From the NCBI RefSeq assembly GCF_003334385.1, contig NZ_QOWN01000162.1: DNA of 587 bases; one strand, given 5' to 3'. The number at the start of each line of letters is the position of its first letter. Within the stretch, counting starts at the first letter, position 1. The translations under genes were made by a program, and so were the position numbers. The DNA comes from Escherichia coli (GTDB lineage: Bacteria > Pseudomonadota > Gammaproteobacteria > Enterobacterales > Enterobacteriaceae). The notes below the pieces were generated by a model. It ran no database searches. It saw nothing but the letters and a program-made list of their open reading frames with translations, and was not told where the DNA came from. This document shows positions 1 to 587 of the stretch, in pieces.

Positions 1-587
1 GCACTATGCGGATGCCATTCGTTATAATGCTCGAACGCCTCTGCAAGGTTCTTTGCTGCCGTTAACCCGTCTGGTTTGGGCATGACACTGATGTAGTCAC
101 GCTTTATCGTTTTCACGAAGCTCTCTGCTATGCCGTTACTCTCCGGACTCCGCACCGCCGTGTTCTTCGGTTCAAGCCCCAACATCCGGGCAAACTGCCG
201 TGTTTCATTAGCCCGGTAGCATGAACCATTATCCGTCAGCCACTCTACTGGAGACGCCGGAAGCTCGTTGCCGAAGCGGCGTTCCACCGCTCCTGGCATG
301 ACGTCCTGTACTGTTTCACTGTCGAAGCCGCCCGTAGTGACCGCCCAGTACAGTGCCTCACGGTCACAGCAGTCCAGCGCGAACGTGACTCGCAGTTTTT
401 CTCCGTTATCACAGCGGAACTCGAACCCGTCAGAGCACCATCGTTGATTGCTTTCTTTCACGGCCACTTTGCCAGTATATGCCCGCTTCGATGGCGGTAC
501 AGCGGTTTTTCGCTCAAGCAACAGCGCATTCTGGCGCATGATCCGGTAAACACGTTTGGCATTGATCGCAGGCATACCATCAAGTTC
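1..587 (-). CDS. insD: IS2 transposase OrfB (InsD), IS3-family DDE transposase/integrase catalytic domain; internal fragment, truncated at both ends by the window
   Basis: Minus-strand translation starting at position 587 is open for all 195 codons (plus 2 leftover nt at positions 2-1). It reads [196 protein letters not shown]. This matches IS2 InsD as I recall it, and it carries the retroviral-integrase-like W-x-x-D, TDNG and ES motifs. All three plus-strand frames are broken by stops within the first ~100 nt. Confidence 0.95.
1..587 (-). mobile_element. Insertion sequence IS2 (IS3 family), internal portion only; element ends lie outside the window
   Basis: The entire window encodes the IS2 orfB product. 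Because orfB is on the minus strand, the IS2 left end (IRL, insC/orfA, frameshift site) must lie beyond position 587 and the right end (IRR) beyond position 1. No inverted repeats or target-site duplications are visible in the window. Confidence 0.93.
102..431 (-). other. DDE catalytic core of the transposase: D at codon 429-431, D at codon 231-233, E at codon 123-125, conserved K at codon 102-104
   Basis: On the minus strand, plus-strand gtc at 429-431 is GAC (the D in WCSDGFEF), atc at 231-233 is GAT (the D in WLTDNGSCY), and ctc at 123-125 is GAG (the E in NGIAESFVK). There are 35 residues between the second D and the E, and a Lys sits 7 residues after the E (ctt at 102-104 is AAG). This is the IS3-family and retroviral-integrase DD(35)E signature. 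Which residues are catalytic is assigned by analogy to the HIV integrase 'QGVVES' region, not by experiment. Confidence 0.8.

Follow-up and report, generated by a model that had tools for sequence, protein, structure and literature searches.

The window (the whole stretch of 587 bp analyzed here) probably derives from a non-functional copy of IS2, a 725-bp 3' remnant that lies beside ISEc38 on an IncFII-type plasmid. The identity of this remnant, its truncation, its junctions and its neighbors are read directly from public records that contain the exact sequence of the window, and the source of the window would carry the same junction, between ISEc38 and IS2 position 607, judging by identity at every base, a private base included. 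The link between window and locus is favored by the recovery of one and the same locus from many independent samples, also through its neighbors, while an intact twin with the same 587 bases, in genomes so far unsampled, could speak against it.

Identity of the Window

Read on its minus strand, the window aligns gap-free and over its whole length to positions 652–1238 of IS2A of K-12 (NC_000913 381260–382590, 1331 bp), with 25 mismatches over 587 bases (95.7% nucleotide identity), and this match to IS2 is far beyond chance. In K-12 IS2A, insC1 (orfA) spans IS2 positions 92–457 and insD1 (orfB) spans 415–1320, and the frame in the window corresponds to orfB (insD) codons 80–274 (window 3–587, minus strand; IS2 652–1236), open past both ends. 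This frame, minus-strand frame 0, is the only one that is open from end to end, the remaining five being full of stops, and it is missing from the list of open reading frames because it exits both ends of the window; the plus-strand frames of up to 59 codons were rejected as antisense by-products of the orfB frame. The G+C content of the window is 54.9%. The encoded protein is identical to K-12 InsD at 184 of 195 residues (94.4%) and differs at 11, and the 23 codons that vary from K-12 IS2 comprise 12 synonymous and 11 nonsynonymous changes. The top NCBIfam model for this protein is NF006918, “IS2 transposase TnpB” (E 3e-133, model positions 80–274 of 301), with a score of 444 bits, where the generic IS3 model reaches 149 bits; the former remains below the whole-protein cut-off of 597 bits because only 195 of the 301 residues are present. 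By the ISfinder convention, isoforms share about 95% or more nucleotide identity with the reference, and the window, at 95.7% over 587 bases, lies within this limit for IS2, while its amino acid identity of 94.4% is under the stricter protein criterion, making the window a diverged isoform. These comparisons place the window in the IS2 group of the IS3 family, as such an isoform of the IS2 sequence family.

The integrase core is recognized as rve (Pfam PF00665; window 144–455, minus strand; window-protein residues 45–148; E 2.6e-19), along with rve_3 (PF13683; window 3–179, minus strand; E 6.7e-14), the C-terminal part of the core, which is clipped by the end of the window. The putative DDE triad is formed, in InsD numbering, by Asp132 in WCSDGF (window 429–431), Asp198 in WLTDNG (231–233) and Glu234 in GIAESF (123–125), all on the minus strand, and the spacing of 36 residues from Asp198 to Glu234 agrees with the DD(35)E pattern. 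By analogy with this pattern in the IS3 family, a catalytic role may be proposed for the three residues (PMC3219604).

An earlier note, made from the letters of the window, had placed it wholly inside IS2, in the interior of orfB, and the gap-free alignment to K-12, the open frame, the match to IS2 TnpB and the rve domain all bear this out; the note named no strand, and it is the minus strand that codes. Its remark that the insertion site cannot be read from the window is also correct, as neither an inverted repeat nor a target duplication nor any flank lies within the 587 bases. The exact translation of 195 residues has no record in an exact-protein look-up. As to other signals, a weak promoter-like site is found on the plus strand (window 82–110, 9 of 12 matches, with 0.3 such sites expected from shuffled sequences), and the terminator scan and the repeat search of the window returned neither terminators nor repeats; nothing here points to a second feature.

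A Minority Sublineage of IS2

Megablast searches with the window return matches in 4,428 of the 5,426 complete Escherichia coli genomes, at a median of three places per genome, annotated as IS3-family or IS2 transposases, in 3,671 of the 72,556 plasmids of the PLSDB collection (from Escherichia, Klebsiella, Salmonella, and Shigella), and in nine phage records, one labeled as IS2 and the others as InsD or IS2 OrfB. Matches of at least 99% identity are limited to about 120 records in each of the E. coli and PLSDB collections, with approximately 5,750 E. coli records falling between 95 and 99%, and the exact window is found in none of the complete E. coli genomes, plasmids or phages searched, the best match there being of 99.5%. 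With few records at 99% or above, none exact and most at 95–99%, the window represents a minority sublineage of IS2, which the alignments would place at about 4% divergence from the K-12 element.

One complete member of this sublineage is the copy on the chromosome of E. coli B771 (NZ_CP120557.1; L001 2908–4238), which is 99.5% identical to the window, with three differences, one of them being the lack of the base responsible for His116Tyr in the window. Compared to K-12 IS2, it has 57 differences and no indels, and it is annotated as encoding an intact transposase with a programmed frameshift. It is flanked by a 5-bp target duplication, ACATT, as K-12 IS2A is flanked by ATTAC, and an intact copy with a target duplication suggests that the sublineage is, or lately was, mobile in the usual manner of IS2. 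The surroundings of this copy (L001 1–6587) form an island with sodC, fragments of IS256 and IS3, and a gene for a group II intron reverse transcriptase.

Recovery of the Locus

At position 479 (IS2 760) the window carries a private base, A (T on the coding strand), which results in the substitution His116Tyr and which is missing from the IS2 of K-12, from the IS2 of SfX and from the two nearest complete records. A 40-mer around this base has one match among metagenome contigs, OAWT01000360.1 (2886 bp, referred to as L005), and none in viral contigs or in the GTDB representatives (one genome per species). In L005 the window matches at 587 of 587 bases (1333–1919, minus strand). Exact-protein look-ups with the 248-codon open reading frame of this locus and its version of 218 residues from the first ATG added 20 loci (L009–L028), represented by human-gut metagenome scaffolds and draft isolate assemblies, and look-ups via the AatD-like and AraC-type neighbors added six more, including a finished 137-kb record, CP065621.1; of these searches, the look-ups with the truncated product are biased toward truncated copies, and only the 40-mer scans and the neighbor-based look-ups are unbiased. 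Of the loci retrieved, 18 contain all 587 bases without a mismatch, every one of them being the same locus. The private base is carried by 24 of the 24 remnant copies compared, and all 24 further remnant-bearing loci have the identical ISEc38–IS2 607 junction, each remnant differing from that of L005 at two sites at most, out of three variable sites in total.

The earlier note had proposed that the flanks, the terminal repeats and the target duplication be inspected, and this was done on the public records with the exact match, in which IRR is found, IRL is not, and no duplication can be scored, as one end is gone. Only the 3' 725 bp of IS2 are kept (IS2 607–1331; L005 1288–2012). IRR is intact (L005 1968–2012), its outermost 26 bp being the same as in K-12, with one substitution 27 bp from the tip. 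Homology to IS2 begins at 606/607, abutting the terminal inverted repeat of ISEc38 (ISL3 family), and in L005 the end of ISEc38, ...GTTCGTGACA, is followed by CGTATGG of IS2, with the ISEc38 transposase gene pointing away from IS2. In place of the ISEc38 end, an intact IS2 would have IRL, the promoter, orfA, the frameshift site, and the first 64 codons of orfB, all of which are gone. IRL is absent from all exact-match loci, and OrfAB is not encoded, since the homology starts downstream of orfA and of the overlap between orfA and orfB. No 5' part of IS2 (positions 1–606) is found within 10 kb on either side of the remnant, and over that distance the left part is thus lost, rather than just displaced by a simple insertion. 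The earlier assumption that the window comes from an IS2 copy of about 1.3 kb holds as far as IS2 is concerned, but not as to an intact copy, as a 725-bp remnant is present in every exact-match locus. The truncated orfB frame is open, with an in-frame TTG located 11 codons upstream, within the end of ISEc38, resulting in the 248-codon open reading frame.

When PLSDB and the complete E. coli genomes were queried with the ISEc38–IS2 607 junction, all matches were in two pieces separated by about 290 bp, and in no record was the junction present as one piece. A search of the window and L005 against Rfam produced a candidate for AfaR, located outside the window and sub-threshold (22 bits versus a gathering score of 100, E 0.74), which was taken as chance.

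Transposition of IS2 is a two-step, copy-out and paste-in process, in which orfA and orfB are driven by a weak promoter in IRL, and the OrfAB transposase is made by a −1 frameshift at A6G (PMC3219604). OrfAB cuts IRR and joins it beside IRL, forming a figure-of-eight, which host replication converts into a minicircle, whose abutted ends serve as both a strong promoter and the substrate for insertion (PMC3219604). Not possessing IRL, the promoter, orfA, or the frameshift site, the remnant would make no transposase, and even with transposase supplied by another copy it would not form the junction of IRR with IRL. From the known mechanism of IS2, the remnant is expected to be immobile.

The Plasmid Locus

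The locus was mapped on a segment of UFYM01000001.1 (60446–81102, referred to as L020), whose coordinates are used below unless another record is named. A gene for an AraC-type regulator of the Rns/AggR family (3396–4214), matching the structures of Rns and CsvR over its full length (E 4e-29), is followed by an IS110-family gene and then by an IS66 fragment. ISEc38 (6853–9943) is split by an IS4-family element (7363–8722; L005 1–66) that encodes a transposase of 370 residues, has ends CATAAGCGCTAAC..., which we take to be IS186-like, and is flanked by an 11-bp direct duplication, CTGTAAATCCC. The interruption of ISEc38 itself makes for three nested layers of insertion at the remnant. In the order of events that we propose, ISEc38 would have replaced everything to the left of IS2 607, and would later have been split by the IS4-family, presumably IS186-like, element. 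The IS2 remnant (9943–10668, with the window at 9989–10575, minus strand) is followed by a stretch of 320 bp (10669–10988), which includes a 49-bp piece seen beside other transposase fragments, and by an IS3-family element of a type annotated with the AL1L pseudoknot (10989–12214). Beyond it is a gene for a dispersin homologue of 122 residues (12321–12689; PDB 2JVU, E 1.5e-19), with five genes directly after it in the order and of the sizes of aatPABCD (12786–17628); their products are an FtsX-type permease, two proteins of 399 and 270 residues, an ABC ATPase, and an Lnt-like acyltransferase. The remnant is thus situated within approximately 8 kb of insertion-sequence debris, between the gene for the Rns-like regulator and the dispersin/Aat-like operon.

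A second IS2 remnant (IS2 718–1331), inverted, is found 9.3 kb from the first one (19981–20594, minus strand). The two differ at 10 sites within 718–1331, and the second is canonical-like at IS2 753–889 and sublineage-like elsewhere, a mosaic that suggests a recombination between IS2 lineages. About 9 kb onward, a yacAB toxin-antitoxin pair, a gene for a 3'-5' exonuclease, and an IncFII repA are encoded, a backbone that is common to many enterobacterial plasmids, at 96–98% identity. One of the carriers of the remnant is the finished CP065621.1. A relative of the plasmid, JBAMFE010000764.1 (10001–20760, referred to as L033), encodes the same regulator, but the order of this gene and the dispersin/Aat genes is inverted, other insertion sequences lie between them, and no IS2 remnant is present. 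The insertion-sequence pile therefore varies among carriers.

The opinion expressed in the earlier note, that the flanks are of more interest than the fragment itself, holds, as the neighbors make up a plasmid module in which genes for fimbriae and for an Rns-like regulator accompany the dispersin/Aat-like operon. The dispersin homologue is approximately 43% identical to Aap of EAEC and has a signal peptide ending FAG/G; a precomputed Pfam hit labels it “Dispersin,” while a scan with the current Pfam library is negative and the sequence search of PDB is positive. The dispersin/Aat segment of 5.5 kb (12321–17628) is also present in CP065621.1 (L031 5629–10936), and a megablast search of PLSDB and of the 5,426 complete E. 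coli genomes finds no match to it beyond 240 bp at about 90%. In a public-assembly index, the AatD-like protein is present in 53 blocks and the regulator in 179, and the module recurs in human-gut metagenome scaffolds. A chaperone-usher operon (PapD/PapC-type) is positioned just upstream of the AraC-type regulator gene (L032 3283–6454). The combination of the regulator, the chaperone-usher genes, the dispersin/Aat genes, and the IncFII repA looks like a virulence-plasmid module in the style of EAEC/ETEC.

Window Ends and Alternative Origins

The ends of the window are at IS2 652 and 1238, each one base inside a site (651 and 1239) that distinguishes the sublineage from canonical IS2. Both sites are among the 57 such sites, the chance of both ends falling in this way being about 0.002, and this, taken with the small size of the source (587 bases), suggests a short contig bounded by assembly branch points among several IS2 types, an origin that would account for the missing flanks. 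With several IS2 types in the sample, the true context of the window could be any of them. A simple unitig model, at the same time, leaves the 25 internal differences from canonical IS2 unaccounted for, and all of the recovered remnants have the same bases at IS2 651 and 1239. The window as a collapsed repeat of the two plasmid IS2 remnants was considered and rejected, as these differ at 10 sites and their common stretches do not match the ends of the window. The last four bases of the window are GTTC (584–587, plus strand), the tetranucleotide target of the IS91 family. In pCFSAN083829_2 (IncK2/Z, CP070395.1; L003), an IS91-family element encoding a 401-residue transposase follows this tetranucleotide and abuts the sublineage exactly at IS2 651/652 (L003 4584–4800), and this insertion after GTTC fits the target of that family.

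It is rather unlikely, in our estimate, that the source of the window is a complete and active element of the sublineage (1331 bp, having both repeats and a 5-bp duplication), on the chromosome or on a plasmid, that could transpose and switch neighboring genes on or off, as the earlier note had assumed. The sublineage does include such a copy, that of E. coli B771, 99.5% identical and flanked by ACATT on either side, the frame in the window is open and the DDE residues are kept, and the ends of the window hint at the presence of two or more IS2 types in the sample. However, searches of 5,426 complete E. coli genomes, 72,556 plasmids, and collections of phages, viral contigs, and GTDB representatives returned no full-length element identical to the window at all 587 bases, and all the exact matches recovered are the truncated remnant. 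An origin from another truncated remnant, such as the one in pCFSAN083829_2, appears very doubtful. In that plasmid IS2 homology starts exactly at 652, beside GTTC, at 99.5% identity to the window, and a contig ending at such a repeat junction would account for the 652 end of the window, but the plasmid differs from the window at three positions, including the private base at 479, the other end of the window (IS2 1238) is no junction in it, and the junction with the IS91-family element is found in none of the exact-match records.

The earlier note had also held that missing terminal repeats would speak for a domesticated or fused transposase; IRL is indeed absent, but IRR is present, and the conclusion is not supported, as the frame extends only 11 codons into the non-coding end of ISEc38 and gains no new domain. 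We give next to no credence to the orfB-like frame being a gene of this kind, with a function for the host. The truncated frame remains open over 248 codons when read from the in-frame TTG that precedes the IS2 part by 11 codons, and it is identical or only synonymously different across the contigs retrieved, but this last pattern is forced by the exact-protein retrieval, the diversity of the remnant frames being too low and their retrieval too biased for selection to be inferred. The 11 upstream codons are the terminal inverted repeat of ISEc38 and contain no domain, the DNA is 99.4% identical to a full-length mobile copy, the right inverted repeat of IS2 is still present after the stop codon, and the surroundings are fragments of other insertion sequences. 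A domesticated gene would be expected to have lost the ends of the insertion sequence and to have gained a new domain or to be under purifying selection in a fixed host context, while here IRR is kept. Given the 99.4% identity to a mobile copy, the frame is still open owing to the youth of the remnant and not to selection. Two further scenarios are far-fetched at present: that the 248-codon frame, which has the integrase core of IS2 but not the DNA-binding part, is transcribed outward from the ISEc38 end and its product acts as a dominant-negative damper of IS2 transposition in plasmid-carrying cells, or that the 8-kb insertion-sequence pile rewires the dispersin/Aat-like operon by separating it from the gene for the Rns-like activator.

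Implications and Comparison with Known Systems

Overall, the window itself matters little, IS2 being among the longest-known insertion sequences, and enterobacterial and F-type plasmids commonly carry decayed insertion sequences that lie within other elements. The ISEc38–IS2 remnant is already known in kind, and the window presents nothing novel. What the analysis does illustrate is that a fragment of a repeat that is devoid of context can still be placed when a private base recurs in public records, and that a position inside an IS2 should not be equated with a position inside an active IS2. The plasmid module beside the remnant, with its Rns-like regulator, its chaperone-usher genes, and a dispersin homologue with an Aat-like exporter, merits more attention than the IS2 fragment. 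The families of which this module is composed are already known (PMC7344145, PMC7478709).

Two known copies are useful for comparison with the 725-bp remnant beside ISEc38, from which the window probably derives. One is the copy of E. coli B771, which over the 726 bases in common is 99.4% identical to the remnant, with the lineage-specific substitutions alike, but which is intact over 1331 bp, possessing both inverted repeats and orfA, while the remnant that matches the window lacks IRL and orfA. The other is a remnant on the IncF plasmid pNDM_P30_L1_05.20 (NZ_CP085061.1; L006 5175–5761), in which the end of ISEc38 likewise abuts a 5'-truncated orfB that continues up to IRR; it is annotated as a pseudogene for an “integrase core domain-containing protein,” and is widespread on IncF plasmids. 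However, the junction in this remnant is at IS2 position ~805–807, about 200 bp further in than the junction at 607 of the exact-match loci, and, apart from its different flanks, this remnant has a frameshift and an identity of only about 94%. The terminal 25 bp of ISEc38 also differ between this plasmid and L005, suggesting that elements of the ISEc38 type have entered orfB of IS2 at least two times.
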